64,000 nt of DNA from an uncultured Eubacteriales bacterium (lineage in GTDB: Bacteria; Bacillota; Clostridia; Peptostreptococcales; Anaerovoracaceae): the NCBI GenBank assembly GCA_900320285.1, contig ONRQ01000021.1:2705-66704 (forward strand), written 5' to 3'. Shown one piece after another: positions 24,414 to 63,820 of this stretch. The notes beneath the pieces are model-generated. The model searched no databases, was not told the origin of the DNA, and saw only the letters and a program-made list of their open reading frames with translations. How positions within the stretch are numbered: the first letter of the stretch is position 1; each line of letters opens with the position of its first letter. The translations under genes were made by a program, and so were the position numbers.

Positions 24414-25496
24414 ATGAAAGAAGATAAAGCGATAACCGCCGTTGGAGTTCTGGCAGTGATACTGGGCCTGCTCATGATGTCTGTAGGCAGATTCATCATG
24501 GGCGGCATCACTCTGCTGATCGCGTTCGGAATTTTCTGGAACCGCGGCGGGGGAACCCGGAATGACCGCAGCATCTATGAGAAAATCGTAAAGACTGATA
24601 TGAGCATCACCGAGATCTACGAAAAGCTGAAGGATCTCGACACGCCGCTCGGAAAGCCATGGATAGCTGAACACAAGGGTTTCGCCGGTGAAAGCATCGT
24701 GTTCGGACCGTGCAGTTTCAAAGACTGCGTGGTGATTTCGCGAAGCAAAAATAACATCGATATAAAACATGTTACCAGGCTCGAGAACATCATCAGAAAA
24801 GAGGAAGACGAGTACAGGTTTGATAACCTGGTAAATCCGCAGGAAGCTGAAGTGACTCCTGAAAGATATGCAGTATTTGCCGGATTCAAGCTTGCGTCAG
24901 TTATGCTGGTAAGACACCTGACGGAGCTGATAGGAAAACTCCATGAGGACAGAGGTGCAAAGGTACCTGAGACCATGGACTTTTACAGGTTTTATTATCA
25001 CAATTCGGCCGAAGGTTACTTCAGGGATTCAGACGGCAATGACGTGCTCAGGGTAGAGACTTCACTGCGCCCGTTTACAGCAAAAGTATTCGATGCGGAT
25101 GGCAATGAGATGGCATCTGTGGTGCCTCACGCTTTCGATAAAAAGGGATACCCTGCAGAGTCTGCCGGCTTTGAGCTGTTCTCGGACGGAGAGCATTTCG
25201 GAGAGATCAGACGTTTCCGGGACTCACGCGGAGAAGGCTTTGAGGCAGATACCGATGCAGGAGTTTTCACAATGATACTCTTCCCGTCATGCATGAAGGC
25301 AAGGATCTCCTGCAACTACATGATAGAGCACGAGGGAAAGCTGAAAGCGGTTATCGGAGGCTCTCCGAATCTTCTGTTTGATGAGTATGGCAGGTGCAGA
25401 AATGACATCATAAATTCATATGATGATGACTATCTGGTACTCTACGCAATCGCTGAGATCTTCATACTTACAAACAACAGCAAGTTCCTTAAATAG
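24414..25496 (+). CDS. Hypothetical membrane-anchored protein
   Basis: 360-aa ORF with two N-terminal hydrophobic segments. I recognise no motif with confidence. Confidence 0.6.
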   Translation: MKEDKAITAVGVLAVILGLLMMSVGRFIMGGITLLIAFGIFWNRGGGTRNDRSIYEKIVKTDMSITEIYEKLKDLDTPLGKPWIAEHKGFAGESIVFGPCSFKDCVVISRSKNNIDIKHVTRLENIIRKEEDEYRFDNLVNPQEAEVTPERYAVFAGFKLASVMLVRHLTELIGKLHEDRGAKVPETMDFYRFYYHNSAEGYFRDSDGNDVLRVETSLRPFTAKVFDADGNEMASVVPHAFDKKGYPAESAGFELFSDGEHFGEIRRFRDSRGEGFEADTDAGVFTMILFPSCMKARISCNYMIEHEGKLKAVIGGSPNLLFDEYGRCRNDIINSYDDDYLVLYAIAEIFILTNNSKFLK

Positions 25497-47865: not shown

Positions 47866-49263
47866 ATGGAGAATGTAAACATGGTTCCAGACATGGATCA
47901 GGCATACGAGGATTCCTTTTACAAAATAATCGAACTCCTCGAGACAAAGAAGTACTTCCATGCCCGAGATGAACTCCTTAAACATAATGAAGTCGAGATA
48001 GCTGAAATGCTTGTAGACATCAGGAGAGAATTCGACCTCAAAACAATGGTCGTTCTCTTTAGGGCGCTTCCGAAAGATATAAGCGTCGATGTGTTTGCTG
48101 AGCTGAGCGTCGAGGATCAGGTAGATATCATAAACATCATAACCGATCCCGAAATCAGATACATACTCGATGAGCTCGACTTCGATGATATGATCGACGT
48201 CCTTGAAGAGCTGCCGTCTAACATAGTAGACAAGATTCTCGACAAGACTCCAAAGAGCGAGAGGCGCCTGATCAATACTTTCCTTAAGTATAAGGAAGAC
48301 AGCGCCGGCGCCCTGATGACGCCGGAGTATATCAATCTCAAAAAGGATGCTACGGTAAGGGAGGCTCTTGATCACATCAAGGAAGTAGGCCTCGACTCAG
48401 AGACAATTTATACATGCTATGTAGTCGACAGCGGCCGAAAGCTTATCGGAGTAGTATCACTAAAGTCTCTGGTCATCTCACCTGATACCATGAAGGTGTC
48501 AGACCTCATGCATGACGATCCGGTGGTCGCTCATGTAGATGATGACCAGGAGGAAGTATCCGAACTGTTCACCAGATACGGTTATCTGGCTATCCCGGTA
48601 GTAGACAATGAATTCAGATTAGTCGGTATCGTTACCGTAGACGACATCCTGGAAGTCATCGAAGAAGAGACTACCGAGGATATCGAGCGTATGGGCGGTG
48701 TCATCGACACTTCGGACAGGGAGTATCTCGACCGGTCCGTCTGGCAGCACGTCAAGGCGAGGCTGCCGTGGCTGTTTCTGCTCATGTGCTCATATTTTGT
48801 GACCGGCGGCATACTGGCAAGATTTGAGGACGCGATGTCTGCTGTCATAGCCCTGGTAATCTACATGCCGATGCTTATGGGTACCGGCGGTAACTCGGGC
48901 TCGCAGTCATCGACACTGGTCATCCGTGGTATGGCGACAGGTGAACTCGAGCTTGGAGATTTCATAAAGGTAATGTGGAAGGAGATCAGAGTCGGCGTTA
49001 TAGTCGGTATCTGCCTGAGCATTCTGAACTACTTCAGAATAGTATATCTTGATCATAATCCGCCTCTTGTAGCGGTTACGGTGTGCGTATCCATGATACT
49101 TATCGTAATCATCGCAAAGCTGATAGGATCCATGCTGCCTATGGTGGCCAAACGCATCGGCATAGACCCTGCACTGATGGCGGGACCTATGATGGCATCG
49201 ATCACAGATATGATCTCACTTTGTACGTATTTCATAATGGCAGGATTGTTCCTGCACATATAA
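47866..49263 (+). CDS. mgtE: Magnesium transporter MgtE
   Basis: N-domain, tandem CBS region and the C-terminal TM domain motif GTGGNSGSQSS. Confidence 0.9.
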   Translation: MENVNMVPDMDQAYEDSFYKIIELLETKKYFHARDELLKHNEVEIAEMLVDIRREFDLKTMVVLFRALPKDISVDVFAELSVEDQVDIINIITDPEIRYILDELDFDDMIDVLEELPSNIVDKILDKTPKSERRLINTFLKYKEDSAGALMTPEYINLKKDATVREALDHIKEVGLDSETIYTCYVVDSGRKLIGVVSLKSLVISPDTMKVSDLMHDDPVVAHVDDDQEEVSELFTRYGYLAIPVVDNEFRLVGIVTVDDILEVIEEETTEDIERMGGVIDTSDREYLDRSVWQHVKARLPWLFLLMCSYFVTGGILARFEDAMSAVIALVIYMPMLMGTGGNSGSQSSTLVIRGMATGELELGDFIKVMWKEIRVGVIVGICLSILNYFRIVYLDHNPPLVAVTVCVSMILIVIIAKLIGSMLPMVAKRIGIDPALMAGPMMASITDMISLCTYFIMAGLFLHI

Positions 49264-49335
49264 TGCCGGAAACCGAATATGATGAATGCTGTTGCCCGCA
49301 GAAGGGCAGCAGCATTTTGTATAAGAACAGAAACT

Positions 49336-49896
49336 ATGATCAAAGAAAAAGGGCAGAAACCTGGAATAGATGAACTTGCGGCTCTTGCGAAAGAAGCCGG
49401 CTTTACTTATGCTGTGACGCTGGATATGGATTCACTTGAGTTCATGGAAGAAGTCCGCAGCATGTGTTCTGCAGACCGCTGCAAGAGCTACGGCAAAAGC
49501 TGGAGCTGTCCGCCTGCAATAGGGAGTGTTGAAAGAGCGAAAGAACGTGCTGAAGCATATCACCGCGGAATATTAGTCCAGACTGCAGGAACCCTTGCGG
49601 ACAGCTTCGATATGGACGGTACTGCGGCAATAATGAAGAAGCACAGAAAGAATTTTGATACACTGGTAAGGCAGGTAAAATATTTTTATCCGGACTGCCT
49701 GCCTATGGGAGCCGGCACATGCAGGATCTGCCGCTCGTGCACTTACCCTGACAGGCCATGCAGGCATCCTGACAAAATGATTTCCTCCATGGAGGCTTAC
49801 GGACTCCTGGTGAGCGACGTGGCAATAAAATCAGGGCTAAAGTATAATTATGGTGAAAACACGATGTGCTTCACATCATGTGTGCTGATTGACTGA
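49336..49896 (+). CDS. DUF2284-like predicted metal-binding (Cys-rich) protein
   Basis: CSADRCKSYGKSWSCPP and CRICRSCTYPDRPCRHP cysteine clusters. The start (49336 or 49279) is uncertain and has no clear SD. Confidence 0.7.
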   Translation: MIKEKGQKPGIDELAALAKEAGFTYAVTLDMDSLEFMEEVRSMCSADRCKSYGKSWSCPPAIGSVERAKERAEAYHRGILVQTAGTLADSFDMDGTAAIMKKHRKNFDTLVRQVKYFYPDCLPMGAGTCRICRSCTYPDRPCRHPDKMISSMEAYGLLVSDVAIKSGLKYNYGENTMCFTSCVLID

Positions 49897-49909
49897 AAGG
49901 GTGTTATAC

Positions 49910-51658
49910 ATGACAGCAAAAGAGATTTTTCTTGAATTACTTAAACCGGATGGGAAACCGGAGCGGCAGCTGGTGCAGTATGAAGCGCTTCAGATGGCTC
50001 TTGGTGATCCGATTGGCGGGTATCTGCATATGGGGAGAATGCCCGGCGCTACCATCACAGACCGTTGGGGTACAGTGATAGAGTGGCCGGCTGATGCTCC
50101 CGGGTCAATGCCTCTTGTAACTGATGAAAACAAAGTGATTAAGGATATAACCAGATGGCGTGATTATGTGCATGCACCGGAGTTTATTTCTCACAGCAGT
50201 GACCCGGAGGCCTGGGCGGCATTACGCGCTAAAACCAGAGAGCGCGCCGGTGATGAACGCCTGGTAGCAGGCTTCATGGCTACGGGCATCTTTGAGCAGT
50301 GCCATTTTCTGATGCCGTTCAAAGATGTGCTGACAAATCTCTATGACCATCCGAAGGAAATGCATGAGCTGATAGACTATATCACTGAGTTCAGACTTGC
50401 CTATGTGAAGCATCTTATAGAGAATCTGAAGCCTGATGTGATCTTTTCGCATGATGACTGGGGTACAAAAGATGCTCTCTTTATGAAGCCGGATATGTGG
50501 CGTGAGTTCTTCAAGGAGCCTTACCGCAGATTCTATGGATACATAAGGGAGCAGGGCGTAATTGCGATACATCACGCCGATTCCTATCTTGCACCTATTG
50601 TTGAAGACATGGCTGAGATAGGTATACAGGTATGGCAGGGAGTTCTTCCGGAGAACGACATACCGGCACTGCAGCAGAGACTTAAAGGCCGCATGGTGCT
50701 GATGGGAGGTATTGGAGCTGCAATCGACAGAGAGGATGCAGGCGAGGAAGAGGTGCGCAGGTATGTACATGATGCTCTTCATGAATACTGCCCGGGCGGG
50801 CACTTCATACCATCGATAACATACGGCCTTGCGGGTACTGTGTATAAACATGTGGACCCGTGGATAGACGATGAGATAAGAAAATATAATGAGGGAATTC
50901 ATCTTCCTAGATATACTTCTCCGTCAGCAGAGAGAAAGAACCCTGTGAAGCTTGGCATTGCTGCTGCAGATGTGGAAAAAGAGACCGTTAAAGCTGAATT
51001 AAAGCCTGAAACAAAGACCGGAACGACAATCTTTGATGAGATATCTGAAGCTCTGCAGGAGGGTGATGTCAGCGCTACTGTTAAAGCTGTGAAGACCGCT
51101 CTTGAACATGGCGAGGATGCTCAGGCTGTTTTGACTGGAGGACTGGTACGCGGAATGAACGAGCTGGGTGAGGATTTTTCACTTGGAGAAGTGTTCGTAC
51201 CGGAAATGCTGAGAGCCGCAAACTGCATGTCAGCTGCAACAGAGATACTTAAGCCGCTTCTTACGGGCGGAGCAGGAGGCATTGCTGCAGGCAAAGTATG
51301 TCTGGGAACAGTAAGAGGCGACCTGCATGATATAGGCAAGAACCTCGTGAAGATAATGATGGAGGGAAGCGGCCTTGAAGTCATAGATCTCGGCTGTGAT
51401 GTAAGCGCCGAAGACTTCATACAGGCTGCTATCGACAGCGATTGCGATATAATCGCGTGCTCTACTCTGCTGACGACAAGCATGGGTGAGATAGACCGTG
51501 TGGTAAAACTGGCCAAAGAGAGAAACATACGCGATAAGGTGAAGATACTGATCGGCGGCGCGCCTGTTACGCAGGAATTCTGCGAACAGACCGGCGCTGA
51601 CATGTACACGCCGGACGCGGCAGCCGCCGCGCGCGCCGCAATTCAGATGCTGTCCTGA
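49910..51658 (+). CDS. UroD/MtaA-superfamily methyltransferase domain fused to a cobalamin-binding (cap + Rossmann) domain; CmuA-like architecture
   Basis: The N-terminal ~340 aa are URO-D-like (FSHDDWGTKD..., IHHADS...). The C-terminus has a B12 cap (VPEMLRAANCM) and GDLHDIGKNLV (DxHxxG), CSTLLTTS (SxL) and ILIGGAPV (GG). Confidence 0.8.
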   Translation: MTAKEIFLELLKPDGKPERQLVQYEALQMALGDPIGGYLHMGRMPGATITDRWGTVIEWPADAPGSMPLVTDENKVIKDITRWRDYVHAPEFISHSSDPEAWAALRAKTRERAGDERLVAGFMATGIFEQCHFLMPFKDVLTNLYDHPKEMHELIDYITEFRLAYVKHLIENLKPDVIFSHDDWGTKDALFMKPDMWREFFKEPYRRFYGYIREQGVIAIHHADSYLAPIVEDMAEIGIQVWQGVLPENDIPALQQRLKGRMVLMGGIGAAIDREDAGEEEVRRYVHDALHEYCPGGHFIPSITYGLAGTVYKHVDPWIDDEIRKYNEGIHLPRYTSPSAERKNPVKLGIAAADVEKETVKAELKPETKTGTTIFDEISEALQEGDVSATVKAVKTALEHGEDAQAVLTGGLVRGMNELGEDFSLGEVFVPEMLRAANCMSAATEILKPLLTGGAGGIAAGKVCLGTVRGDLHDIGKNLVKIMMEGSGLEVIDLGCDVSAEDFIQAAIDSDCDIIACSTLLTTSMGEIDRVVKLAKERNIRDKVKILIGGAPVTQEFCEQTGADMYTPDAAAAARAAIQMLS

Positions 51659-51681
51659 TAACAAGAAACAGAGGAAAAGAT

Positions 51682-52899
51682 ATGGAATTATACTTCCCGC
51701 TCATACTTGACGGAGCAAACGGAACAGAGCTTCAGAAGAGGGGCTTTGACGGAAGCAAATGCACCGAGGCGTGGGTTCTCGAGCACCCTGAAGTGATGAA
51801 AAAGCTGCAGGAGGAATACATAGAAGCCGGCAGTGACATTGTTTATGCGCCTACATTCGGAGCCAACAGGGTAAAGCTCGAAGAGAACGGCATATTCAAT
51901 ATGGCAGGTGATTTCAACAGACGTCTTGTGGAGATATCCAAAGAAGCTGCGGCCGGAAAGGCTCTTGTAGCAGGCGATATAGCTACAAGCGGCAAGTTCC
52001 TGGCGCCTCTTGGAGACATCACATTCGGTGAGCTTTACGATATCTACCATGAGCAGGCTGAAGCGATGGAAGAGGCTGGGGTGGATATGTACGTGATAGA
52101 AACTATCATGACAGTGCCGGATGCGCGTGCTGCGCTGTTGGCAGTGAAGGATGTGAGCGACAAGCCTGTCCTCGTTTCATTCACATGCGATGAGAACGGC
52201 CGTACACTTACGGGATCCGATGTGAGGGCGGCCCTTGTAATACTGCAGGGCATGGGAATCGATGCTTTCGGACTCAACTGCAGCACAGGTCCTGCAGAGA
52301 TGCTTGAGCAGGCGAAGCGTCTGCGCGATCTCGCCGAAGTACCTGTCGCTATAAAGCCTAATGCAGGTCTGCCTAAGACTGTAAACGGAGAAACAGTCTA
52401 TGACTGTCCTCCGGACGAATTCGTTAAGCATACAAAAGAGTTCATAGAGCTCGGCGGCGCGCTCTTCGGAGGCTGCTGCGGCACGGGTCCTGAGCACATC
52501 GCGAAGATAGCGCCTGAGCTTGAGGGTTTTAAGCTCAGAAAACCTGATCCTCAGTATAGAGATAAGATAGTCTGCGCTACCGAAAAGGATGTGTTCATAC
52601 TTGAACCGGGTATTGAGGCAGGTGAGATCATCGAATGCGGTCCTGACCTTGAGGAACAGATAAGAAAAGCCAATAAAAGCGATTCGCAGATCATCACAAT
52701 AAAGATAGCCTGCGAGCCTGATATCGATGAGTTTGAAGCAGCTCAGTACGCGATACGTAAGCCGTTATGTATTGTCTGCGATGATACGGCGCTTCTTTCC
52801 GAAGCACTGATGCTTTATCAGGGCAGAGCACTTTATGCCGGAAACCTTTCTGATGAAGAGCTCGCTCCGATGGTACGCAGATACGGACTGATCATATGA
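51682..52899 (+). CDS. Homocysteine S-methyltransferase-domain protein (MetH Hcy-module-like) with a ~125-aa C-terminal extension
   Basis: LDGANGTELQ start, and Zn-ligand motifs GLNCSTGP and GGCCGTGPEHI. Starts 23 nt after the corrinoid fusion gene. Confidence 0.8.
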   Translation: MELYFPLILDGANGTELQKRGFDGSKCTEAWVLEHPEVMKKLQEEYIEAGSDIVYAPTFGANRVKLEENGIFNMAGDFNRRLVEISKEAAAGKALVAGDIATSGKFLAPLGDITFGELYDIYHEQAEAMEEAGVDMYVIETIMTVPDARAALLAVKDVSDKPVLVSFTCDENGRTLTGSDVRAALVILQGMGIDAFGLNCSTGPAEMLEQAKRLRDLAEVPVAIKPNAGLPKTVNGETVYDCPPDEFVKHTKEFIELGGALFGGCCGTGPEHIAKIAPELEGFKLRKPDPQYRDKIVCATEKDVFILEPGIEAGEIIECGPDLEEQIRKANKSDSQIITIKIACEPDIDEFEAAQYAIRKPLCIVCDDTALLSEALMLYQGRALYAGNLSDEELAPMVRRYGLII

Positions 52900-53726
52900 T
52901 GCAAAAGCGAGAGAATATGAATTCAGAAAATGAACTGCTTGTCGTGAGCTTCGGTACAACTTCAGCTGAAAGCCGCCGGCTGAATATAGAATCCGTAGAG
53001 CAGGCTATACAGGAAATTGCGGGGGAAAGCTGGAAAGTATGCAGATGCTTCACCTCACAGACCATTATTAATATCATAGCCGGAAAGGAAGGCTGCAGAA
53101 TCGACAACATTGCCGAAGCACTTGAAAGAGCCGCTGCCGCAGGCGTAAAGAATCTGGTCGTACAGCCTACACATCTGATGAAAGGGCTGGAGTACGATAA
53201 GCTTTGCTGTATACTTGCGAAGTATTCAGGCTCATTCGCCAGGGTTGCTATAGGTGATCCGCTCTTCACATCCGATGAGGACTATTACAGAGTCGCAGAT
53301 GCAATCATCGAAGCTTCGACAGAGTATGAGGACAGCGGGACAGCGCTTGTATTCATGGGCCACGGTACGGAAGCAGCTGCAAACGGAATCTATGAAAAGC
53401 TTCAGAGCGTATTGAACTGCAAGGGAAAAGACGATTACTACATAGGTACTGTTGAAGCGACACCTTCTTTGAATGATGTGATCAGGGCTGTCGGTGAGGG
53501 AAGCTATAAAAGAGTGGTTCTGAGGCCGCTGATGCTTGTGGCCGGAAATCATGCAGTTAACGATATGGCTTCAACTATGGATCCGGATTCCTGGTATTCA
53601 CGCTTTTGTGCGGATGGATATGAGACCGTATGCATTATAGAAGGCCTGGGACAGATATCAGCTGTCCGTGATATTTATGCAGATCATGCTTATAAAGCAA
53701 TCGCATCGCTGGAAATACAGTTATAA
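52896..53726 (+). CDS. cbiK: Sirohydrochlorin cobaltochelatase CbiK-type protein (cytoplasmic)
   Basis: LLVVSFGTT, VVQPTHLM.G.EYD, FMGHGTE and LRPLMLVAGNHAVNDM. ATGA overlap with the upstream gene. Confidence 0.85.
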   Translation: MMQKRENMNSENELLVVSFGTTSAESRRLNIESVEQAIQEIAGESWKVCRCFTSQTIINIIAGKEGCRIDNIAEALERAAAAGVKNLVVQPTHLMKGLEYDKLCCILAKYSGSFARVAIGDPLFTSDEDYYRVADAIIEASTEYEDSGTALVFMGHGTEAAANGIYEKLQSVLNCKGKDDYYIGTVEATPSLNDVIRAVGEGSYKRVVLRPLMLVAGNHAVNDMASTMDPDSWYSRFCADGYETVCIIEGLGQISAVRDIYADHAYKAIASLEIQL

Positions 53727-53794
53727 AGTTTTTCAATAGCGAATACACCAGGCCACTTACGGTGTTACAATAATTCTGCACTGCAAAATAACTT

Positions 53795-53975
53795 AATTAT
53801 ATGAAGTGCCGGTGCCCCGTCGGCAGACGGGGAGAATAGGGAAGCAGGTGAGAATCCTGCGCGATCCCGTCACTGTGATAGAACGTGTCAGTCCATTATG
53901 TCACTGGGCATTATTACGGACCCGGGAAGGCGGACTGATATGATATGTTCTTCAGCCAGGAGACCTGCCGTTACT
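53795..53975 (+). promoter_or_regulatory. Cobalamin (B12) riboswitch aptamer
   Basis: GGTGCC..., AATAGGGAAGCAGGTGAGAATCCTGCGC, CCCGTCACTGTGA, GTCACTGGG...GGGAAGGCGG, and the B12 box GCCAGGAGACCTGCC at 53955-53969. Confidence 0.9.
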
Positions 53976-54091
53976 TAAGTACAGGAAACAGTCAGCATGC
54001 GGCCGGCAGTGCCATGGGCGATGCAGACGGTTTCCCGATCACGTGGAATTGGTCGTACAGTACAGAGGGAGCATTGCTCCTTGTTTCTGTC

Positions 54092-54126
54092 GCCCTTTTT
54101 ACCGTGAGTGGAAAAAGGCTTTTTTA
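54092..54126 (+). terminator. Riboswitch expression-platform terminator
   Basis: GCCCTTTTT-accgtgagtg-GAAAAAGGC hairpin (one bulge) followed by TTTTTT, 46 nt before the next ATG. Confidence 0.6.
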
Positions 54127-54171
54127 ATGATAAAGCCAGAATGAATTCATAGTTAAAAGGAGAATGTTGAC

Positions 54172-55398
54172 ATGAAGAAAAAGTTATTGGTTTTGATGCT
54201 TGGACTCGCAATGATCCTCTCATTCTCGCTTCTGACCGCATGCGGAAGCAATGAGGAAGCTGCACCTGAAGAAGAGGCTGCAGATCCTGTCGCAGAATGC
54301 GCTGCACTGATCGATGCTATCTATGTTCAGGAGTACACAGATGAGACATATGCTCAGTGTGAGGCTGCAAAGGCAGCGTGGGATGCTCTGACAGATGAGC
54401 AGAAGGAGCAGGTTGAAGGCGAAGAAGCAAGTCCTGATTACTTCGGAAGAGATACAGGTGATGCTTCCAAGGACGATCCTCTTAACCAGGATGATATAGG
54501 TGAAAATGAACTCCTGGTGGTAAGCTTCGGCACATCGTTCAATGACAGTCGTACAGAAGATATAGGCGGTATCGAGAAAGCTCTTCAGGAGGCAAATCCT
54601 GACTGGTCAGTCAGAAGAGCATTCACAGCTCAGATCATCATCAATCACATATATGCACGTGACGGCGAGAAGATCGACAATGTTGATCAGGCTCTTCAGA
54701 GAGCTGTTGACAACGGAGTAAAGAACCTCGTTGTTCAGCCGACTCACCTGATGCATGGCGCGGAGTATGATGAACTGATCGGTACACTTGACGGCTATAA
54801 AGATAAATTCGAAACTGTTAAGGTCGCAGAGCCGCTGCTTGGTACTGTAGGTGAGGACGCAACTGTGGTCAATGCTGACAAGGAAGCAGTTGCACAGGCT
54901 GTAGTTGCACAGGCTGTTTCTGAGTCAGGATTCGATTCACTCGATGCAGCAGCTGCAGATGGTACTGCATTCGTATTCCTGGGACATGGTACTTCCCACC
55001 AGGCCGCAGTTACTTACGATCAGATGCAGGAGCAGATGAAGCAGCTCGGATACGGCAATGTATTCGTAGGAACTGTAGAAGGAAAGCCTGAAGACACAGC
55101 ATTCCCTGCAGTAAAGAAGGCGCTTGAGGAAGCCGGATATACAAAGGTCATCCTCAGACCTCTGATGGTAGTTGCCGGAGACCACGCAAACAATGACATG
55201 GCCGGTGATGAAGAAGGCACATGGTACTACGGTTTTGTCAACGGCGGCGAATTCGAAGTTGAAGGCGCTGATGAAGCTGTAGATACAGGCGCGGGACTCG
55301 GTGCTGACAATGTAAACTGCCAGATCGAAGGCCTCGGAAGAATCGAAGACGTACAGAAGCTCTATGTTGATCACACTGCTGAAGCAATGGCTCAGTAA
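54172..55398 (+). CDS. Lipoprotein with an extracytoplasmic CbiK-like chelatase domain
   Basis: Lipobox LLTAC after a signal peptide and a ~95-aa acidic N-terminal module. Then LLVVSFGTS, VVQPTHLMHGAEYD, FLGHGTSH and LRPLMVVAGDHANNDM. Confidence 0.85.
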   Translation: MKKKLLVLMLGLAMILSFSLLTACGSNEEAAPEEEAADPVAECAALIDAIYVQEYTDETYAQCEAAKAAWDALTDEQKEQVEGEEASPDYFGRDTGDASKDDPLNQDDIGENELLVVSFGTSFNDSRTEDIGGIEKALQEANPDWSVRRAFTAQIIINHIYARDGEKIDNVDQALQRAVDNGVKNLVVQPTHLMHGAEYDELIGTLDGYKDKFETVKVAEPLLGTVGEDATVVNADKEAVAQAVVAQAVSESGFDSLDAAAADGTAFVFLGHGTSHQAAVTYDQMQEQMKQLGYGNVFVGTVEGKPEDTAFPAVKKALEEAGYTKVILRPLMVVAGDHANNDMAGDEEGTWYYGFVNGGEFEVEGADEAVDTGAGLGADNVNCQIEGLGRIEDVQKLYVDHTAEAMAQ

Positions 55399-55407
55399 GA
55401 AGTGCGA

Positions 55408-56250
55408 ATGAAAAACTTTAAACTATCAAAAATACTATTATATGCTGTGCTGGTTGTATCCGTACTCATGCTGGCGGGATGCGGCAGTACAGAAAAGGCA
55501 GCTGATCCGGGTATCGCCGATGGCACTTATGTTGCGACCTTTACGACGGATAACTCGATGTTCCACGTCAATGAGGCGCACCAGGATAAAGGAATATTGA
55601 CAGTCGAGGACGGGAAAATGACTATTCATGTCAGCCTCCAGTCCAAGAAGATAGTCAATCTTTATCCGGGACTAGCTGAGGATGCTAAGAAAGAAGGCGC
55701 TGAGCTGCTTGAACCTACCACCGATAAAGTTGTTTACAGCGATGGCTATGAAGACGAGGTGTACGGATTTGACATTCCGGTGCCTGCACTTGATGAGGAG
55801 TTCGATGTAGCGCTTATAGGTACTCACGGCAACTGGTACGACCACAAGGTCGTTGTATCTGACCCTGTAGAAGGCGACGACATTCAGGCGGTCATCAATG
55901 GCGGAGCTGAAGGTGAAAGCAGCGCGGCAACTGACATTGAAGATGGTGAGCACACTGTGGAGGTCACGCTCGAAGGCGGTACAGGCAAAGCTTCTATAGA
56001 CAGCCCTGCTGTACTGCGCAAAAGCGGAGATGAGTACACTGCAGTCATCACCTGGAGCAGTCCTTACTACGACTATATGATAGTAGACGGGCAGAGATAC
56101 GAACCGGTGAACACTGACGGCAATTCAGTATTCGAGATACCGGTCTCATCTCTCGACAGCCCGCTGGAAGTGATCGCCGATACTACGGCGATGAGCGAGC
56201 CGCATGAGATCGAATATACGATCAGATTCGATCCGGCCTCGATCAAATAG
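55408..56250 (+). CDS. Lipoprotein of unknown function with two related ~110-aa modules
   Basis: Lipobox MLAGC. Module starts are ADGTYVATFT...LTVEDGKMTIHVSL and EDGEHTVEVTL...LRKSGDEYTAVITWSS. Confidence 0.7.
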   Translation: MKNFKLSKILLYAVLVVSVLMLAGCGSTEKAADPGIADGTYVATFTTDNSMFHVNEAHQDKGILTVEDGKMTIHVSLQSKKIVNLYPGLAEDAKKEGAELLEPTTDKVVYSDGYEDEVYGFDIPVPALDEEFDVALIGTHGNWYDHKVVVSDPVEGDDIQAVINGGAEGESSAATDIEDGEHTVEVTLEGGTGKASIDSPAVLRKSGDEYTAVITWSSPYYDYMIVDGQRYEPVNTDGNSVFEIPVSSLDSPLEVIADTTAMSEPHEIEYTIRFDPASIK

Positions 56251-56312
56251 TTCAGATGATGCAGGGATACTGTTACACTTGGGCGGTATCCCTGCATTCG
56301 CTTATATCATTC

Positions 56313-57470
56313 ATGAAAAAAAACAGAATAATAACAGCAATAATAACACTGACGCTTGTGTTTGCTCTTGCAGGCTGCAGCGGAGATAGTGCAGACAGTG
56401 CAGGCAGCGAATGGGAAGGGCACCTCACGGGATCGATGGAGCTGAAGTATGCAGATCAGTTCCACGTTGATTACTATGAGGATGGTATTTCGGTGGTCAC
56501 GGTAGAAGATGGTCTCAGGTATCTTGTCACAGAGGATGCAGATAATTTGCCGGAATGGCTGCCTGAAGACGAAATCAATGATATGACCGTCATTAAAGCA
56601 CCGGTTCATTCTGTATATAATGCCGCATCTTCGGCAATGGACCTTATTGACGCAGCAGGAGGTCTGGACTCTGTAGTTATGACAAGCACTCAGGCGGGTG
56701 ACTGGGGCATAGACAAGATAAAAAAGCTTGTTGAAAACGATACTATCCGATACATCGGAAAATACCGCGCGCCTGATTATGAAGCTCTTCTCGAGGGCGA
56801 TGTGGATCTCGCAATAGAGTCCACCATGATATACCACAGTCCGCAGGTAAAGGAAGTGATTGAGGAGCTGGGGATTCCGGTCCTTGTGGAGAGGTCAAGC
56901 TATGAATCAAACCCTCTGGGAAGGCTTGAATGGATAAGACTGTACGGACTTCTTTTCGGAAAGGACGATGAAGCTCAGGCGTTTTTCGACGAGGCTGTGG
57001 CAAAGGTGGAAGGCGTGGATACGGATACCATAGCCCAGGCGCCTTCAGTTGCATTCTTCTCAGTAAATTCAAACGGCTCTGTGGTCGTGAGAAAGCCGGG
57101 TGACTATGTAACAAAGATGATAGAAACGGCCGGAGGGACTTATGCCCTTGACGGCATTACAAGTGAAGAAGACAATGCGCTTTCAACCATGAACATGCAG
57201 ATGGAAGCGTTCTATGATAAAGCTGTTGATGCTGATATACTCATCTATAACAGCACCATCGAAGGCGGCCTGGAGGAAATGAGTGACCTAACGGCGCTTT
57301 CGGATAAATTCAACGATTTTGCAGCGGTTAAGAGCGGAAATGTATGGTGCACTGATGCCAGCACTTTCCAGCGGACCACCGGTGCGGCTGATATGATCGT
57401 TGAAATGAATAAGATCTTTGCAGGCGCCGCGGATGACAGCGGCATGGAGTATTTCCACAAGCTGAAGTAA
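56313..57470 (+). CDS. ABC transporter substrate-binding lipoprotein (BtuF/FecB class, cluster A)
   Basis: Lipobox ALAGC. Size and pattern fit siderophore/cobalamin-binding proteins, and FecCD permease and ATPase genes follow. Confidence 0.8.
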   Translation: MKKNRIITAIITLTLVFALAGCSGDSADSAGSEWEGHLTGSMELKYADQFHVDYYEDGISVVTVEDGLRYLVTEDADNLPEWLPEDEINDMTVIKAPVHSVYNAASSAMDLIDAAGGLDSVVMTSTQAGDWGIDKIKKLVENDTIRYIGKYRAPDYEALLEGDVDLAIESTMIYHSPQVKEVIEELGIPVLVERSSYESNPLGRLEWIRLYGLLFGKDDEAQAFFDEAVAKVEGVDTDTIAQAPSVAFFSVNSNGSVVVRKPGDYVTKMIETAGGTYALDGITSEEDNALSTMNMQMEAFYDKAVDADILIYNSTIEGGLEEMSDLTALSDKFNDFAAVKSGNVWCTDASTFQRTTGAADMIVEMNKIFAGAADDSGMEYFHKLK

Positions 57471-57485
57471 ACGGCGGGTGACTTG

Positions 57486-58490
57486 ATGAAAAGCAGCAGG
57501 ATCAAAGCGTGCTACGCTTTGCTGGGAGTGTTGCTCCTTGCACTGATACTACTGAATATACTTATAGGAAGCTCCTCAATGACTATGGGAGATGCTTTGA
57601 GGATCCTCTTTTCGCATGACACGGTATCCAAATACGGCAAGATCGTATGGGACATCCGCATGCCGAGGATTCTTGCGGCGGCTCTTCTCGGAGGAGCTCT
57701 TTCTGTATCCGGATTTCTGCTGCAGACGTTCTTTGCAAATCCGATTGCCGGCCCGTATATACTCGGTATCTCATCGGGTGCCAAGCTTGTAGTAGCATGT
57801 GCAATGATATTCGCGCTGAGCCACGGCATAATGGTGCATTCCCTTGTGATGATAATCGCTGCATTTGCGGGCTCACTGGTGGTCACAGGAGTGATCCTTC
57901 TGATCTCAGGCAAGGTAAAAAGCATGGCTGTCCTGATTGTTTGCGGCGTCATGGTCGGCTACATATGCTCTGCGATCACGGAGTTTCTCGTCACATTCGC
58001 TGACGATTCCAACATAGTCAATCTGCACAACTGGTCGATGGGAAGCTTTTCGGCTGTCAGCTGGGACAACATCAGGGTGATCACTCTGGTCGTACTGATA
58101 GCAGTGGTCGTCTCGTTCCTGCTTTCAAAGCCGATGAACGCTTTTCAGATGGGAGAGCAGTATGCAGTCAGTGTAGGAGTAAACCTCCGCTCGTTCAGGA
58201 TCGGCCTGATAACTCTTTCAAGCATCCTGTCAGCGACAGTTACGGCTTTTGCAGGCCCGATATCGTTTGTAGGCATCGCAGTACCGCATATCATCAGATC
58301 GATCACTGACACGTCAAAGCCGGTGGTCATGATACCGCAGTGCTTCCTGGGCGGTTCGGTGTTCTGTCTCTTCTGCGACCTGCTGGCAAGGAGCCTGTTT
58401 GCGCCGACTGAGATGAGCATCAGTTCGATGACAGCTGTATTCGGAGCTCCGGTAGTGATAGCTATGCTTATCGGAAGAAAGAAGAGGTGA
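57486..58490 (+). CDS. FecCD/BtuC family ABC permease
   Basis: RMPRILAAALLGGALSVSGFLLQ...NPIAGPYILGISSGA is the hallmark FecCD motif. Confidence 0.9.
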   Translation: MKSSRIKACYALLGVLLLALILLNILIGSSSMTMGDALRILFSHDTVSKYGKIVWDIRMPRILAAALLGGALSVSGFLLQTFFANPIAGPYILGISSGAKLVVACAMIFALSHGIMVHSLVMIIAAFAGSLVVTGVILLISGKVKSMAVLIVCGVMVGYICSAITEFLVTFADDSNIVNLHNWSMGSFSAVSWDNIRVITLVVLIAVVVSFLLSKPMNAFQMGEQYAVSVGVNLRSFRIGLITLSSILSATVTAFAGPISFVGIAVPHIIRSITDTSKPVVMIPQCFLGGSVFCLFCDLLARSLFAPTEMSISSMTAVFGAPVVIAMLIGRKKR

Positions 58491-58495
58491 CACGT

Positions 58496-59281
58496 ATGGG
58501 ATCTGTTATCAGAACGGAACACCTCGATTCGGGGTACGGGCACAAGATAATAGTAGCCGGCGCGGAGATAGTCGTGCAGCCGGGTGAGATAGTGACACTG
58601 ATCGGACCAAACGGTGCAGGCAAATCGACTGTGCTCAAGACAATAGCGGGACAGCTCGAACCTATAGCCGGAACTATTTACATAGGGGACGAGGAACGCT
58701 CGACGTACAGCCTTACGGAAATTGCAAAAAAACAGGCGGTCATGCTCACCGAGAGAAATCCTGCAGAGAAGATGACATGTGAAGAGGTGATCTCACTAGG
58801 AAGATATCCGTACACGGGGAGACTTGGCATTCTTTCGGAAAATGATAAAAAAATCGTCCGGGATACCATGGAACTGGTGCATGTGACAGAGCTGGCTGAG
58901 CGCAGCTACGATCAGATAAGTGACGGACAGAGGCAGAGAGTATTGCTTGCAAGAGCGATTTGCCAGGAGCCTGAGATAATGATTCTGGATGAGCCGACAT
59001 CCTATCTGGACATAAGGCATAAGCTTGAGTTTCTCGATCTGCTGAGGAGCCTCACGCAGGAGAAGGAGATAGGCGTCATAATGTCGATGCATGAGCTTGA
59101 GCTTGCGCATCTGATTGCTGACAAGGTGATTTGTATTTCGGCTGCCGGAAAAGTGGAAAAGGTCGGAAGTCCTGAAGAGGTCTTTACTGACGAACTTATA
59201 AGCAGGCTGTACAGCCTCGGAGACGGAAGGCTCCGTGAAGTATATGCCGGTTTTGTAAAGAGTATAGAGAAAAATGGCTAA
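58496..59281 (+). CDS. ABC transporter ATP-binding protein (BtuD/FepC class)
   Basis: [16 protein letters not shown] and [10 protein letters not shown] motifs. Confidence 0.9.
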
Positions 59282-60767
59282 GGTAATAATGGTACAGGGC
59301 ACTATGTCCAATGCAGGCAAGAGCCTTCTTGCCGCAGGGCTGTGCCGCATATTCAGACAGGACGGATACAGAGTAGCGCCTTTCAAATCGCAGAACATGG
59401 CGCTCAATTCGTTCGCGACTAAAGAAGGGCTCGAGATGAGCCGCGCACAGGTGGTGCAGGCTGAAGCTGCCGGGACCGATCCTTTGGTATGCATGAATCC
59501 GATATTGCTGAAGCCGACGGACGACCAGGGCTCGCAGGTGATCATAAACGGAAAATCAATCGGCAATATGAAAGCCCGCGATTATTTCAGATTCAAGACA
59601 GAGCTGATACCTGTCATAAAGGAGGCTTTCCGAAAGCTCGAGGATCAGTTCGATATAATCGTGATTGAGGGAGCGGGCTCTCCGGCTGAGATCAATCTTA
59701 AGGAAAACGACATAGTTAATATGGGGCTTGCCGAAATGGTGGATGCCCCGGTACTTCTGGTCGGAGACATAGACAGAGGTGGTGTTTTCGCGCAGCTTCT
59801 CGGCACGCTGATGCTCCTTGAAGACAGCGAAAAAGAAAGAGTAAAGGGCCTCATAATAAATAAATTCAGAGGCGACGCATCGCTGCTCGACAGCGGTATA
59901 GAGATGCTTGAAGAAAAGGGCGGTGTGCCGGTAGTCGGTACTGTGCCGTATATAAACATAAAAGTGGAGGATGAGGATTCGCTTTCAGACAGGCTCTCCG
60001 CAAGCAGGAGAGGTCTTGTAGACATAGCAGTCGTACGACTTCCGAAGCTCTCAAACTTCACTGACTTCGATGTATTTGAACAATTTCCGGATGTATCGGT
60101 CAGATATGTCAGCGAGCTCGACGAACTCATGGGAGCAGACATGGTTATAATTCCGGGCTCAAAAAGCACGATAGCTGATCTTGAATGGATGCGTGAAAAA
60201 GGCATATCGGATGAGATCATAAGGCTGAGCAGAAAAGGGGTTCCGGTGTTCGGTATCTGTGGAGGATATCAGATGCTTGGGGTCGGAGTTTCAGATCCGG
60301 AGGGTGTTGAAGGCGGAGGAGAAGCTGAAGGCCTCGGTCTGCTTCCGGTTACGACGGTTCTTGCAGGAGACAAAAGAACGGAGCAGTTCCATGGATCCTT
60401 CTGTGCTGCAGATGGGATTTTTGCGGGACTGTCGGGCCTTGAAATCGAAGGTTACGAAATACATATGGGACAGACATTCCCTGAAGGCTGTATGGCTCAG
60501 TGCGCATCAGACTTTACATCGGATAATACCGGTGTGTGCGAAGGCAACGTTTACGGAACATACATACACGGAGTTTTTGACAGAGCAGGAGTAGCAGCTG
60601 CAGTAGTCAGCGCCCTTGCAGAGAAGAAGGGCGTAGTTCTCAGCGGCGGAGATGCTTCCGGCCACAGAGATTTTAAAGAGAAAGAATATGACAGGCTGGC
60701 GGCCATGCTCAGAGAAAATCTCGATATGGACTTTATCTACTCCATACTCAGGGAGGCAGCATTTTGA
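59274..60767 (+). CDS. cobQ: Cobyric acid synthase
   Basis: [23 protein letters not shown] and a C-terminal glutamine amidotransferase domain ([10 protein letters not shown]). Confidence 0.9.
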
Positions 60768-62353
60768 TTAATATAGTACCTTTTGACAGAGACACATATG
60801 ATGATATCAGAGCCCGATGGGACAGCATAGCGAAGCCGCTGAACAGTCTCGGCAGATTTGAGGAAATCACGGCGCGCATAGGTGCAGCGCAGGGCTCGGC
60901 TGAAATAGATATAAGGAAACGCGCGGTCATAATAATGTGCGCTGATAATGGCATAGTTGCTGAAGGAGTGAGTCAGTCCGGACAGGACGTGACCCGAGCT
61001 GTCGCCGAGTGGATGGGAAGGGGAGAGAGCTCTGTCTGCCAGATGGCAAAAGAGGCTAAAGCAGATACTATTCCTGTTGATGTAGGCATCAATATGGAAG
61101 GCAGCCCGAAGGGGGTCATAGACCGCAAAGTGATGAAGGGCACAAGGAACTTTGCGCATGAGCCTGCTATGACTGAAGATGAGTGCATGCAGGCTATAGA
61201 AGCTGGTATCGATATTGTCTGCGACTGCAGCGCCGGTGGCTATAAGCTGCTTGCTACAGGAGAAATGGGCATAGGCAATACTACAACAAGTTCGGCCCTT
61301 GTTGCAGCTCTTCTTGGCCTGGACGCTGATATTGTAACCGGCAGGGGTGCGGGCCTGAGTACCGAAGGACTCAGAAAAAAGACGCAGGTGATTCGCGATG
61401 CTCTTGAAAAATATGAACCTTCCGGTGATGCCGAAAGGACAAGTCCCGAGTACGCTATGCATATGCTCTCCTGTGTAGGGGGCCTTGATATAGCGGGACT
61501 CGCCGGAGTCTTTATCGGGGGTGCGATGAATCACATCCCCGTGATTATAGACGGCTTCATAAGCGCGGTAGCTGCTCTGATCGCTGAGAGGCTGGTGCCG
61601 GGAACCAGGAATTTCATGATAGCATCACACCTGGGAAAAGAGCCGGGTATGAAGTACATACTCGACATACTTGGTCTGGAACCTGTCATTGACGGTATGC
61701 TTGCGCTTGGCGAGGGTACCGGTGCTGTCATGCTCATGCCTTTGCTGGACACAGTGCTCGCTCTTTATTCAAACGGACTCAGCTTTGCAGATACGACGGT
61801 CGAGCAGTATCATGACTTTGATTCAGAGTCCGCGGGCGGTACCACTGTCTTTATCATCGGTACACCAAACAGTGGCAAGTCAGCCATGGCTGAGAAGATC
61901 GTAACAGAGCTGTCAGATCCTGAACACAGGATATACGTCGCTACGATGATCCCGTACGGAAAAGAGGGCAGGGAGCGTGTTGAGAGACACCGCATGATGA
62001 GATACGGCAAGGGCTTTATCACGATCGAAGCTCCTTTCGATATCTGCAGTGAACTTAGTGACTATAACATGAGTACCGGAAGCAGACTGGGCGATATGAC
62101 CGTACTTCTTGAATGCCTGTCAAATCTCGTTGCTAATGAGATGTTTGAAAGACGCTCCGACAGAGATGAAATGCTCGGAAGGCTGTATGAAGATATCAGA
62201 TGGATCGCGAAACGCGCGGGGAACCTCGTCATCGTAAGCAATCACTTTGAGATCGAAGAATCATTTGACGATGAGACCCGTTTTTATGCAGAGACGCTCG
62301 ATATGCTGAACGAAATGGTCAGCGGACTGGCCGATAAGACCATAAGGATATAA
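60764..62353 (+). CDS. cobT: Fusion of nicotinate-nucleotide:DMB phosphoribosyltransferase (CobT) and adenosylcobinamide kinase/guanylyltransferase (CobU)
   Basis: CobT: [28 protein letters not shown]. After ~350 aa, CobU: [12 protein letters not shown]-loop and ERHRMMR. TTG start after GGGAGG. Confidence 0.85.
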
Positions 62354-62359
62354 GGTAAG

Positions 62360-63148
62360 ATGAAACTACTGAGAGCCATAGCGGTCGCATTTGCGCAATA
62401 CTCGAGAATACCGGTGCCGCGCTTCGAGTGGAAAGAAGATGACATGCGTTACAGCATTGCCGCTTTTCCACTGGTCGGAGCAGTGATTGGCCTCGTGTTC
62501 TTTGGCGTGTTCAGATGCGCGGAACACTTTGCTCTGCCCGATACCGCAGCTGCACTCCTGCTGACCGCAGTACCACTCATCATAACCGGAGGCTTTCACG
62601 TCGATGGGTTCATGGATGTTGCTGATGCACTCAGCTCATATAAGACCAGAGAAGAAAAACTGGCTATTCTGAAGGACCCGCACATCGGAGCTTTTGCGGT
62701 CATAAGGCTGGCAATATGCGGCCTTATATACATCGCTTCGCTCATAATAGTGCTGGCATCGGATAGTGCACCGGGCCTCATATCAGGGATCGCAACAGGA
62801 TTCGTTCTTTCCAGATGCCTGAGCGCGCAGTCCGTCCTGAATTTCAGATCTGCAAAAAAAGAAGGCATGCTCTACTATGAAGCAACAGCAGCTGCCAAGG
62901 GTCGTAAAGTCAATATCACTATAGTTACGATTATCGCAGTAATAGCAGCATGGTTCATGGCGTTTTTTGCCTGGCCGGCAGGCTCGCTGCTGCTCTTCGC
63001 TGCGCTTTTGAGTTTTATATGGTACAAGCACATCAGCTATAAGCAATTCGGCGGCATAACCGGAGATACGGCAGGATATTTTGTCGTCATATGTGAGACT
63101 TCCATCGCTGCAGCCGCAGCTCTGGCATCAGTTGTATTACCGATATAA
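62360..63148 (+). CDS. cobS: Adenosylcobinamide-GDP ribazoletransferase (cobalamin synthase)
   Basis: Multi-TM protein with TGGFHVDGFMD and GGITGDTAG motifs. Confidence 0.9.
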   Translation: MKLLRAIAVAFAQYSRIPVPRFEWKEDDMRYSIAAFPLVGAVIGLVFFGVFRCAEHFALPDTAAALLLTAVPLIITGGFHVDGFMDVADALSSYKTREEKLAILKDPHIGAFAVIRLAICGLIYIASLIIVLASDSAPGLISGIATGFVLSRCLSAQSVLNFRSAKKEGMLYYEATAAAKGRKVNITIVTIIAVIAAWFMAFFAWPAGSLLLFAALLSFIWYKHISYKQFGGITGDTAGYFVVICETSIAAAAALASVVLPI

Positions 63149-63163
63149 AAGGCGGTGACCGGA

Positions 63164-63820
63164 ATGAAATGTTATCTTATCAGACACGGAATAACTGAAG
63201 GGAATAACGCGCTTCACTTCAATGGGAGCGGAACAGACGAGCCTCTGACAGAGGAAGGAAGGGAAGCTCTGAAAAAGATCGAAGGCGTGAAGCCTGGGTC
63301 GCTGCTTTTCGCAAGTCCAATGATAAGAGCCCGCGAGACTGCGGCTATAATGTTTCCGGATGCTAAACCTCTGATTATTGATGACCTAAGGGAGATGCAC
63401 TTTGGTATATTCGAGGGGAAAAACCACAGGATGCTTGACGGAGGCGCTGAATATCAGGCATGGCTTGACAGCGGCGGAGTGGATCCCATACCGGGAGGAG
63501 AAAGCATAGGGATCTTCCGCGAGAGAGCCTGGAAAGGCTTTAAGAAAGCGCTCAGAACAGCCGTAAACAAAGGAGTGGATACGATCTATCTGGTCGTTCA
63601 CGGAGGAACTATAATGGCTGTCATGAGTAGCCTGACAGGCAAAGACTATTTTGATTTCAACGCGCCAAACGGCGCAGGATATATTATCGAAGTGGAGACT
63701 GATGATGCAGGAAATGTCACTGCTGCAACTACATATGATCGCTTTTGCGGCGGGCTTCGTGCTGGATCTGATGGTTGGAGACCCCCACGGTATACCCCAT
63801 CCGATAGTATGGATAGGTAA
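63164..63820 (+). CDS. cobC: Alpha-ribazole phosphatase (histidine phosphatase family)
   Basis: LIRHGITEGN catalytic motif and VVHGG. Operon context fits. The last 86 nt overlap cbiB out of frame. Confidence 0.8.
   Translation: MKCYLIRHGITEGNNALHFNGSGTDEPLTEEGREALKKIEGVKPGSLLFASPMIRARETAAIMFPDAKPLIIDDLREMHFGIFEGKNHRMLDGGAEYQAWLDSGGVDPIPGGESIGIFRERAWKGFKKALRTAVNKGVDTIYLVVHGGTIMAVMSSLTGKDYFDFNAPNGAGYIIEVETDDAGNVTAATTYDRFCGGLRAGSDGWRPPRYTPSDSMDR

Follow-up and report, generated by a model that had tools for sequence, protein, structure and literature searches.

The gene cassette at positions 49336–53726 of the window (the whole 64-kb stretch of DNA analysed here, from contig ONRQ01000021.1 of an uncultured bacterium of the Anaerovoracaceae) probably encodes a modular, corrinoid-dependent, and folate-independent X:homocysteine methyltransferase, X standing for a methyl donor, and would in effect be an alternative methionine synthase. 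Its four genes, delimited from the listing of open reading frames (ORFs) and by direct reading of the junctions, are all co-directional on the forward (+) strand, to which the window coordinates below refer unless stated otherwise. They code, in this order, for a Cys-rich DUF2284 protein, a fusion of a UroD-superfamily methyltransferase domain with a corrinoid-binding module, a protein with a homocysteine (Hcy)-binding Zn barrel (hereafter, Hcy protein), and a CbiK-type chelatase or tetrapyrrole-binding protein. A sequence-only reading of the same DNA had assigned these domains, and the Pfam scan agrees for all four proteins (PF10050, PF01208, PF02607, PF02310, PF02574, and PF06180). It had further proposed that a methyl group passes from X to a Co(I) corrinoid and then to homocysteine without folate; this proposal gains strong support from comparative genomics, its biochemistry being still a prediction rather than a demonstrated reaction.

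Conservation of the cassette across genomes

A profile of the UroD-like domain was searched against 185,579 species-representative genomes, which gave 80 loci, and the parts of the window were mapped onto them by tblastn. The UroD::B12 fusion is found in 60 of the 80 loci, with 58–98% identity in the UroD part, and its carriers span Anaerovoracaceae, Oscillospiraceae, and Solobacterium. Thirty-eight fusion loci are complete, having at least 4.5 kb upstream and at least 3 kb downstream, and every one of them (38/38) carries the gene for the 405-aa Hcy protein beside the fusion gene; the 10 fusion loci that are devoid of an Hcy gene are each cut by a contig end. The gene order and orientation vary by lineage, being co-directional in the window and divergent elsewhere; in most Oscillospiraceae, the Hcy gene and the gene for a RACo-type activase run leftward, divergent from the DUF2284 and fusion genes, which run rightward. 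Because this obligate linkage survives rearrangement across Anaerovoracaceae, Oscillospiraceae, and Solobacterium, it is strong evidence that the fusion and the Hcy gene form a functional unit. The other partners are less constant, with DUF2284 in 35, the RACo-type activase in 24, and CbiK in only 6 of the 38 complete loci, so that the co-occurrence expected by the sequence-only reading holds for the fusion, the Hcy protein and, nearly always, DUF2284, whereas the four-gene unit that it had drawn breaks down at CbiK.

By clustering the ORFs of the 80 loci, only four recurrent gene families were found around the fusion, and no transporter, regulator, or catabolic gene was seen to travel with the fused cassette. 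A gene of the MeTr type (pterin-binding methyltransferase) is present neither in the window nor in any of the 60 fusion loci. Neither a pterin-binding domain nor a MetH reactivation domain occurs anywhere in the 64-kb window, and a RACo/RamA gene is missing from it as well. The absence of the first two modules was already pointed out from the sequence and stands; the absence of an activase is true of the window, and not of the system at large, in view of the RACo gene in 24 complete loci.

As a separate observation, a TetR-family regulator lies directly before the DUF2284 and fusion genes in one lineage (L003/L004:7092–7649). As the sole regulator observed next to the cassette, it hints that the genes of this lineage may be induced by a small molecule.

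The Hcy protein as a truncated MetH

The Hcy protein (51682–52899; 405 aa; ATG start), as judged from its sequence and predicted fold, clearly descends from MetH and is a truncated form of it. Residues 1–290 (51682–52551) constitute the homocysteine-binding Zn barrel (PF02574, E = 3.5e-71 over residues 7–278) and are predicted to act as a methylcorrinoid:homocysteine methyltransferase (MT2), and residues 291–405 (52552–52899) are a remnant of the MetH folate barrel, identified by alignment to Thermotoga maritima MetH and by superposition of the model. The best relative in the PDB is T. maritima MetH(1–566) (PDB ID: 1q7m; E = 8.8e-62), with an alignment covering residues 7–395 and thereby running into the folate barrel; matches to BHMT (2.3e-20) and MmuM (1.1e-14) are much weaker. 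The predicted structure (pLDDT, 92.2; pTM, 0.92) is superposed by Foldseek on MetH(1–566) over its whole chain (~428 columns; TMq, 0.84–0.86), and on BHMT/MmuM over only about the first 300 of the 405 residues (TMq, 0.58). The residues expected for homocysteine binding (Asp10, Gly11, and Glu140) and the Zn-binding Cys200 of the GLNCS motif and Cys265–Cys266 of the GGCCGT motif, both motifs having been noted in the initial inspection, are invariant in 27 homologs. The family profiles stay below their cutoffs: NF007020 (MmuM/HMT) scores 109 bits against 215, NF005718 (BHMT) 175 against 338, and the top NCBIfam match, the Hcy half of a YitJ-type bifunctional enzyme, 243 against 453. Taken together, the Hcy module belongs to the methylcobalamin-reactive MetH lineage and not to the lineage using S-adenosylmethionine (SAM) or S-methylmethionine.

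The folate-barrel remnant, ~110 residues, aligns to residues ~310–421 of T. maritima MetH, where the barrel begins with its initial strands and helices, and the Pfam scan of the Hcy protein gives no match to the pterin-binding barrel PF00809, the barrel being incomplete. In the alignment with 1q7m, Val and Ala stand opposite the "SLDIQ" Asp and the "LFNS" Asn, respectively, two residues that we take to be pterin contacts; both checkable pterin contacts of MetH thus appear to be replaced. The motifs CATEK, PLCIVCDD, YQGRALYAG, and YGL of the remnant are conserved down to 58% identity, which implies that selection acts on this segment; it may offer the corrinoid domain a surface on which to dock. 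The reactivation domain PF02965 was not found by Pfam in the cassette proteins, the B12 module sits on the neighbouring fusion polypeptide, and TIGR02082 (MetH) gives scores of 192 and 129 bits against a cutoff of 1011.

A seemingly longer Hcy homolog of 603 aa (P0173; L087:8001–9812) was considered as a variant architecture and rejected, as it contains an internal repeat of ~200 residues (~106–305). In those portions that the BLASTP output shows, the two copies are near-identical, and the repeat is most likely an artefact of metagenome assembly.

The UroD::corrinoid fusion protein

The fusion gene (49910–51658; 582 aa; ATG start, TGA stop) encodes the UroD-superfamily methyltransferase domain in residues 1–345 (49910–50944; PF01208, E = 7.6e-16 over residues 108–305), a putative donor-side methyltransferase (MT1), followed by a B12 cap (residues 375–448; PF02607, 1.8e-17) and a B12 Rossmann domain (residues 462–570; PF02310, 9.9e-27), which together occupy 51032–51619 and would serve as the methyl carrier. 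The B12 motifs recognized at the outset, Asp471-x-His473-x-x-Gly476, Ser518-x-Leu520, and Gly549–Gly550, are invariant in homologs. With its closest relatives being MtgC/MtbC-type proteins and a Moorella protein (PDB ID: 1y80; 1.2e-45), the C-terminal half is a standard methyltransferase corrinoid protein.

The N-terminal half, in turn, is a remote member of the UroD superfamily; TIGR01463 (mtaA_cmuA) gives 40 bits against a cutoff of 235.4, and a PDB profile search with the UroD domain gave weak UroD/MtaA matches alone (E = 0.0015 to 0.27). In the sequence "IHHADS" of this domain, His222 and Asp224 are invariant and align on the zinc-binding His and the first Cys, respectively, of the His-x-Cys motif in MtaA (PDB ID: 4ay7). 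A second alignment, with distant UroD::corrinoid fusions having H-x-C or H-x-D, places the two residues in the same manner, and the third zinc-ligand position is not conserved in the fusion. Hence the earlier failure to find the H-x-C...C Zn-thiolate ligands persists after alignment, with His-x-Asp in their stead. In this superfamily, S-methyltransferases have His-Cys-Cys, and O-demethylases have a carboxylate or a non-ligand at the Cys positions (PMC10418091). By this rule, the replacement of His-x-Cys by His-x-Asp would favour an O-methyl donor. Literature searches with motif strings such as HDDWG and HHADS returned no relevant match. Foldseek of the AlphaFold2 model of the fusion returned generic matches to MetH Fol+Cob and corrinoid proteins (TM ~0.25), which are uninformative on the UroD active site.

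Unfused paralogs and the donor-side assignment

Sixteen loci, mostly from Lachnospiraceae and Blautia, have unfused paralogs of the UroD protein (48–58% identity), and none of the 16 has an Hcy gene nearby. In locus L080, the operon encodes a GPH-family transporter, the UroD protein, a BaiCD/OYE-like Fe–S flavoenzyme, and a Gate-domain membrane protein, and then a MeTr and an MtgC-like corrinoid protein; the MeTr is a methyl-tetrahydrofolate (THF):corrinoid methyltransferase (NF005719, 333 bits against a cutoff of 259). In locus L084, this transporter, UroD protein, and reductase occur again, and the genes for RACo and DUF2284 come after them. Because the folate-side enzyme is already accounted for in such canonical clusters, the UroD protein, as the only candidate left, must presumably be their donor-side enzyme. 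Given that 0 of the 60 fusion loci carry a MeTr-type gene, the fused version appears to have swapped the THF methyltransferase for a truncated MetH.

The GPH-family transporter occurs in 10 of the 16 paralog loci and the BaiCD/OYE-like C=C reductase in 4; the combination of a symporter of the sugar/glucuronide type with a C=C reductase fits plant phenolic substrates. Loci L079, L080, L083, and L084 (for example, L080:2330–10186) represent an apparently uncharacterised demethylase cluster in Lachnospiraceae and other Eubacteriales. It comprises the GPH-family symporter, the UroD-type MT1, the OYE Fe–S flavoenzyme, which resembles BaiCD and bilirubin reductase, the Gate-domain membrane protein, the MeTr-type enzyme, and the corrinoid protein, to which L084 adds RACo and DUF2284; its substrate is possibly a methoxylated unsaturated phenolic or glycoside.

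Accessory proteins

The RACo protein of the cassette is composed of Fer2, Raco_middle, and RACo_C_ter domains and is AcsV-like (2.8e-91). In each of the 24 complete loci that have it, its gene lies within the cassette directly upstream of the Hcy gene, and this adjacency ties the Hcy protein to corrinoid chemistry. The DUF2284 protein (49336–49896; 186 aa; TGA stop; PF10050, E = 1.9e-48) contains eight Cys residues that are invariant in 43 homologs (MCx4Cx8CPP and Cx7CxxCxxCx6C), which suggest that it is an Fe–S protein. It had been put forward as a candidate redox or activation partner; a partnership specific to this system is not supported, since the protein also accompanies RACo in the canonical THF-type cluster L084 and looks more like a general companion of RACo than a homocysteine-specific one.

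The CbiK-type protein (52896–53726; 276 aa; PF06180, E = 2e-66) keeps both catalytic His residues and scores 194 bits against the equivalog cutoff of 400 for NF047852; in the PDB, it matches the heme-binding protein FetB (PDB ID: 9b86; 6e-38) best, next to CbiK (PDB ID: 1qgo; 3.5e-36). Although its gene is translationally coupled to the Hcy gene in the window, the two are found together in no loci but those of close Anaerovoracaceae relatives, in which a riboswitch-controlled B12 operon is adjacent as well; the riboswitch is arranged in L013 as it is in the window. CbiK was thus rejected as a component of the system, being confined to 6 of 38 complete loci and a single lineage; it is a lineage-specific neighbour to be grouped with the B12 acquisition genes next to it.

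Proposed mechanism and alternatives

In the mechanism we propose, the UroD domain would move a methyl group from the small donor X to the Co(I) corrinoid bound to the cap and Rossmann module of the same fusion polypeptide. In the 405-aa protein, the Zn-activated thiolate of homocysteine, bound at the Zn(Cys)3 site, would then accept the methyl group from CH3–Co(III) to give methionine and regenerate Co(I). Accidental Co(II) would be repaired by the RACo-type ATP-dependent activase, encoded in the cassette of most lineages, with the Cys-rich DUF2284 protein as a likely Fe–S helper of this Co(I) repair. As for X, the likeliest candidate is an aryl methyl ether, such as the methoxylated plant aromatics abundant in gut and rumen, although we would put the chance of this below even. 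It is likewise possible, rather than probable, that gut and rumen Oscillospiraceae, Anaerovoracaceae, and Solobacterium use the cassette as a folate-free B12 methionine synthase that demethylates dietary or drug aryl methyl ethers. To our knowledge, these host groups are not known as acetogens.

Several observations weigh against this mechanism or its choice of donor. No SAM riboswitch (S-box) or methionine T-box was detected by Rfam at the cassette, in the window and 10 related loci; because no such leader precedes it, the regulation of the cassette differs from that of typical methionine genes in Firmicutes, and the sole RNA regulator that Rfam found near it is the B12 riboswitch of the adjoining operon. 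The window itself encodes no activase, and the lack of a co-travelling transporter or substrate-specific regulator would be uncommon among systems whose substrate comes from outside the cell. If the genome has a gene for a pterin-binding methyltransferase at some other place, this enzyme might supply methyl groups to the same corrinoid domain or draw them from it. With respect to the donor, the alignments that underlie the His-x-Asp argument are of low identity (E = 0.11 to MtaA), the rule applied to it comes from one preprint (PMC10418091), and certain O-demethylases and CdmB are devoid of any zinc (PMC13222342). The AlphaFold2 model of the fusion has a pLDDT of 57.7 and derives from a shallow alignment of 19 sequences with 77–100% identity.

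Other explanations of the cassette assign different roles to the same domains. It might be a housekeeping MetH that was rebuilt, the UroD-like barrel replacing the lost pterin barrel and demethylating 5-methyl-THF; the Hcy protein being so clearly a truncated MetH, the cassette having no transporter or catabolic genes, and housekeeping genes lying around it would all agree with such an origin. The N-terminal barrel of MetE contributes to methylfolate binding. The UroD superfamily is taken to include MetE (PMC10418091), and one can therefore conceive of this fold binding folate. In L080, on the other hand, a UroD protein of the same subfamily is paired with a dedicated MeTr-type enzyme, which places it on the non-folate side there, and the want of S-box and T-box leaders in the window and the 10 loci speaks against a housekeeping enzyme as well. 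We also know of no UroD-type corrinoid methyltransferase that uses methyl-THF, and consider the rebuilt enzyme unlikely. Less probable still is a function in handling methylated selenium, sulfur, or metalloids, with DUF2284 as a metal(loid)-binding partner and (seleno)homocysteine as the sink. It would parallel the type 1 mlp clusters, in which UroD-like methyltransferases, a corrinoid protein, and RACE are proposed to carry methyl groups from methyl-selenide to methionine (PMC10418091), and DUF2284 is known fused to an arsenite methyltransferase or as a selenoprotein (NF041536 and NF045648, both weak matches; PMC13188914). The Mlp enzymes, however, have His-Cys-Cys (PMC10418091), whereas the fusion has Asp in place of the first Cys and shows no conservation at the third ligand. 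Moreover, DUF2284 also occurs with an ordinary THF-type cluster, and ORF clustering revealed no recurrent selenium or arsenic genes near the cassette.

The methyl group might also flow in reverse, the Hcy module demethylating methionine onto the corrinoid and the UroD domain methylating an acceptor. The host organisms presumably ferment amino acids, and methionine would hence be available to them. Corrinoid enzymes can indeed demethylate thioethers, as MtsA does with dimethyl sulfide (cited in PMC10418091). Such a direction is nevertheless difficult to reconcile with a UroD domain that has no thiolate-type Zn site of acceptor-side enzymes, and with the donor-side position held by its paralogs. 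In MetH, moreover, it is established that CH3-cobalamin strongly favours passing its methyl group to the thiolate of homocysteine, and we regard the reverse direction as highly improbable. Lastly, the Hcy protein could be a corrinoid-independent SAM/S-methylmethionine:homocysteine methyltransferase that stands next to the fusion by accident, seeing that PF02574 includes MmuM/HMT and BHMT and that its top NCBIfam match is the YitJ-type Hcy half. This is scarcely credible in the light of the unbroken co-occurrence of the fusion and Hcy genes despite rearrangements, the RACo gene directly upstream of the Hcy gene in most complete loci, the MetH-type sequence, fold, and folate-barrel remnant, and the HMT and BHMT scores at about half of their cutoffs.

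Gene layout and surroundings in the window

The tight packing of the four genes described at the outset, with gaps of 13 and 23 nt and one overlap, was confirmed at every junction. The 13-nt gap between the DUF2284 and fusion genes includes an AAGGG ribosome-binding site, the 23-nt gap between the fusion and Hcy genes includes GAGGAAAAG, and the ATG of CbiK (52896) overlaps the TGA stop codon of the Hcy gene as ATGA. A promoter-like site, ATGGCA-16-TATAAT (49237–49264), lies upstream of the DUF2284 gene and overlaps the end of mgtE; it is a consensus match alone (10/12 positions) and not functional evidence.

The 3′ limit of the cassette is marked by a cobalamin riboswitch (53793–53986; RF00174; 115.8 bits; E = 2.4e-28), which starts a separate downstream operon of nine genes (53793–63820) for corrinoid uptake and salvage. 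These encode a CbiK-like lipoprotein (54172–55398), a lipoprotein with a weak NEAT-like domain (55402–56250), a BtuF/IsdE-like binding protein, a FecCD permease, an ABC ATPase, CobQ/CbiP, a CobT–CobU fusion (60764–62353), CobS, and a CobC-like phosphatase. With B12 controlling an operon that places CbiK-like and NEAT-like proteins on the cell surface, a Gram-positive system for corrinoid capture is suggested.

Elsewhere in the window, a 987-aa ORF on the reverse strand (6337–9300) has no Pfam match at E <= 1e-6 and lies within the only part of the window that has a reversed GC skew. Two further ORFs, at 24414–25496 (360 aa) and 4233–4733 (166 aa), also have no Pfam match at E <= 1e-6. The region 11333–12205 encodes an unusual fusion of PF02579 (NifX/NifB-type dinitrogenase iron-molybdenum cofactor domain) with an FKBP-type peptidyl-prolyl isomerase domain.

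Implications

If the proposed function is correct, the cassette would add a further route to methionine besides MetH, MetE, core-MetE, and split MetH, in which the methyl group comes from neither folate nor SAM-derived compounds. Taxa that are not known as acetogens and have no evident methyl-THF outlet could then profit from methoxylated plant compounds, and more gut taxa would be expected to O-demethylate dietary phenolics and methoxy-containing drugs, a capacity hitherto credited mainly to acetogens; the O-demethylation of polyphenols and drugs, the supply of B12, and the methionine/SAM pool would thereby be linked. The cassette would also illustrate modular evolution, in that one donor-side subfamily would be combined with a THF-type acceptor in Lachnospiraceae, whereas its members in Oscillospiraceae and Anaerovoracaceae would go with a truncated MetH, and DUF2284 would gain a setting in which an accessory role in corrinoid reactivation can be tested. 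Direct testing is possible in three cultured carriers, Mogibacterium kristiansenii, Eubacterium pyruvativorans i6, and Hominicoprocola fusiformis.

Comparison with known systems

A literature search did not find a cassette of this composition, most subscription journals being outside its coverage. The chloromethane:corrinoid methyltransferase CmuA of Methylobacterium/Hyphomicrobium is alike in domain order only, with an N-terminal UroD/MtaA-like domain and a C-terminal corrinoid module; it differs in having the pterin-type CmuB as its partner in place of an Hcy module, and His-x-Asp and the canonical DxHxxG are features of the present fusion. The O-demethylase and haloalkane systems OdmABCD, VdmB, MtvABC, MtoABCD, and CdmBCA of anaerobes (PMC13222342) share with the cassette a UroD-superfamily enzyme on the donor side, a position that is presumed for the cassette, a corrinoid protein made of cap and Rossmann domains, and a RACo-family ATP-dependent activator, and it is in clusters of this three-component type that the unfused paralogs (L080 and L084) sit. 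Their acceptor, however, is a pterin-binding enzyme delivering the methyl group to THF and the Wood–Ljungdahl pathway, where the cassette has the homocysteine barrel, and the putative MT1 and corrinoid protein are fused here.

Closer to the proposed end product are the type 1 mlp clusters (PMC10418091), which are also widespread in anaerobic Firmicutes, combine UroD-superfamily methyltransferases with a corrinoid protein and RACE, have no THF methyltransferase, and are proposed to end in methionine; they differ in having two to three MtaA-like His-Cys-Cys proteins, no PF02574, and links to selenium and sulfur genes. The core-MetE proteins MesA, MesB, and MesC (PMC7857596) likewise pass the methyl group of a methylated corrinoid protein to homocysteine without folate, the logic predicted for the cassette, but they are of the MetE type (PF01717) rather than the MetH type (PF02574), and their partners are MtrA or the CoFeSP of central one-carbon pathways instead of an MT1::corrinoid fusion dedicated to them. 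Type 1 mlp clusters and MesA–D were therefore rejected as explanations of the cassette, their composition and catalytic residues being different. In comparison with the T. maritima MetH structures (PDB IDs: 1q7m and 3bof), the cassette retains the Zn(Cys)3 site, the homocysteine-binding Asp–Gly and Glu, the start of the folate barrel at the same relative position, and the His-on corrinoid binding via DxHxxG. In marked difference from MetH, the folate barrel is truncated after ~110 residues with loss of the two checkable pterin contacts, the B12 module is located on the other polypeptide and is nearer to methylotrophic corrinoid proteins, PF02965 is missing, and a UroD-like domain is found on the donor side.

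The nearest counterparts are the three-part split MetH of Phaeobacter inhibens and MtgBCDE of Ruegeria pomeroyi, for which genetics has proven that an Hcy module works together with a corrinoid protein on a separate polypeptide and with a RamA-like activase (PMC5764234, PMC12478193). Like the present cassette, they have a standalone PF02574 module, an MtgC/MtbC-like carrier, reactivation by a protein of the RamA/RACo family, and a small protein of unknown function; in MtgBCDE, MtgB, a donor enzyme that does not use folate, can also charge the same carrier from glycine betaine, a logic alike to that proposed here. In contrast, methionine synthesis there requires the pterin subunit MtgD, of which neither the window nor any of the 60 fusion loci has a counterpart; the donor enzyme is a separate protein of the MttB family in MtgBCDE and a UroD-type domain fused to the carrier here; the accessory protein is DUF1638 instead of DUF2284; the hosts are aerobic marine Proteobacteria instead of anaerobic gut and rumen Firmicutes; and a folate-barrel remnant is attached to the Hcy module only here. 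Altogether, the statement of the sequence-only reading that no characterised system has this composition apparently holds for the composition itself, whereas the concept has close precedents in the split MetH of Phaeobacter and the MtgBCDE of Ruegeria.

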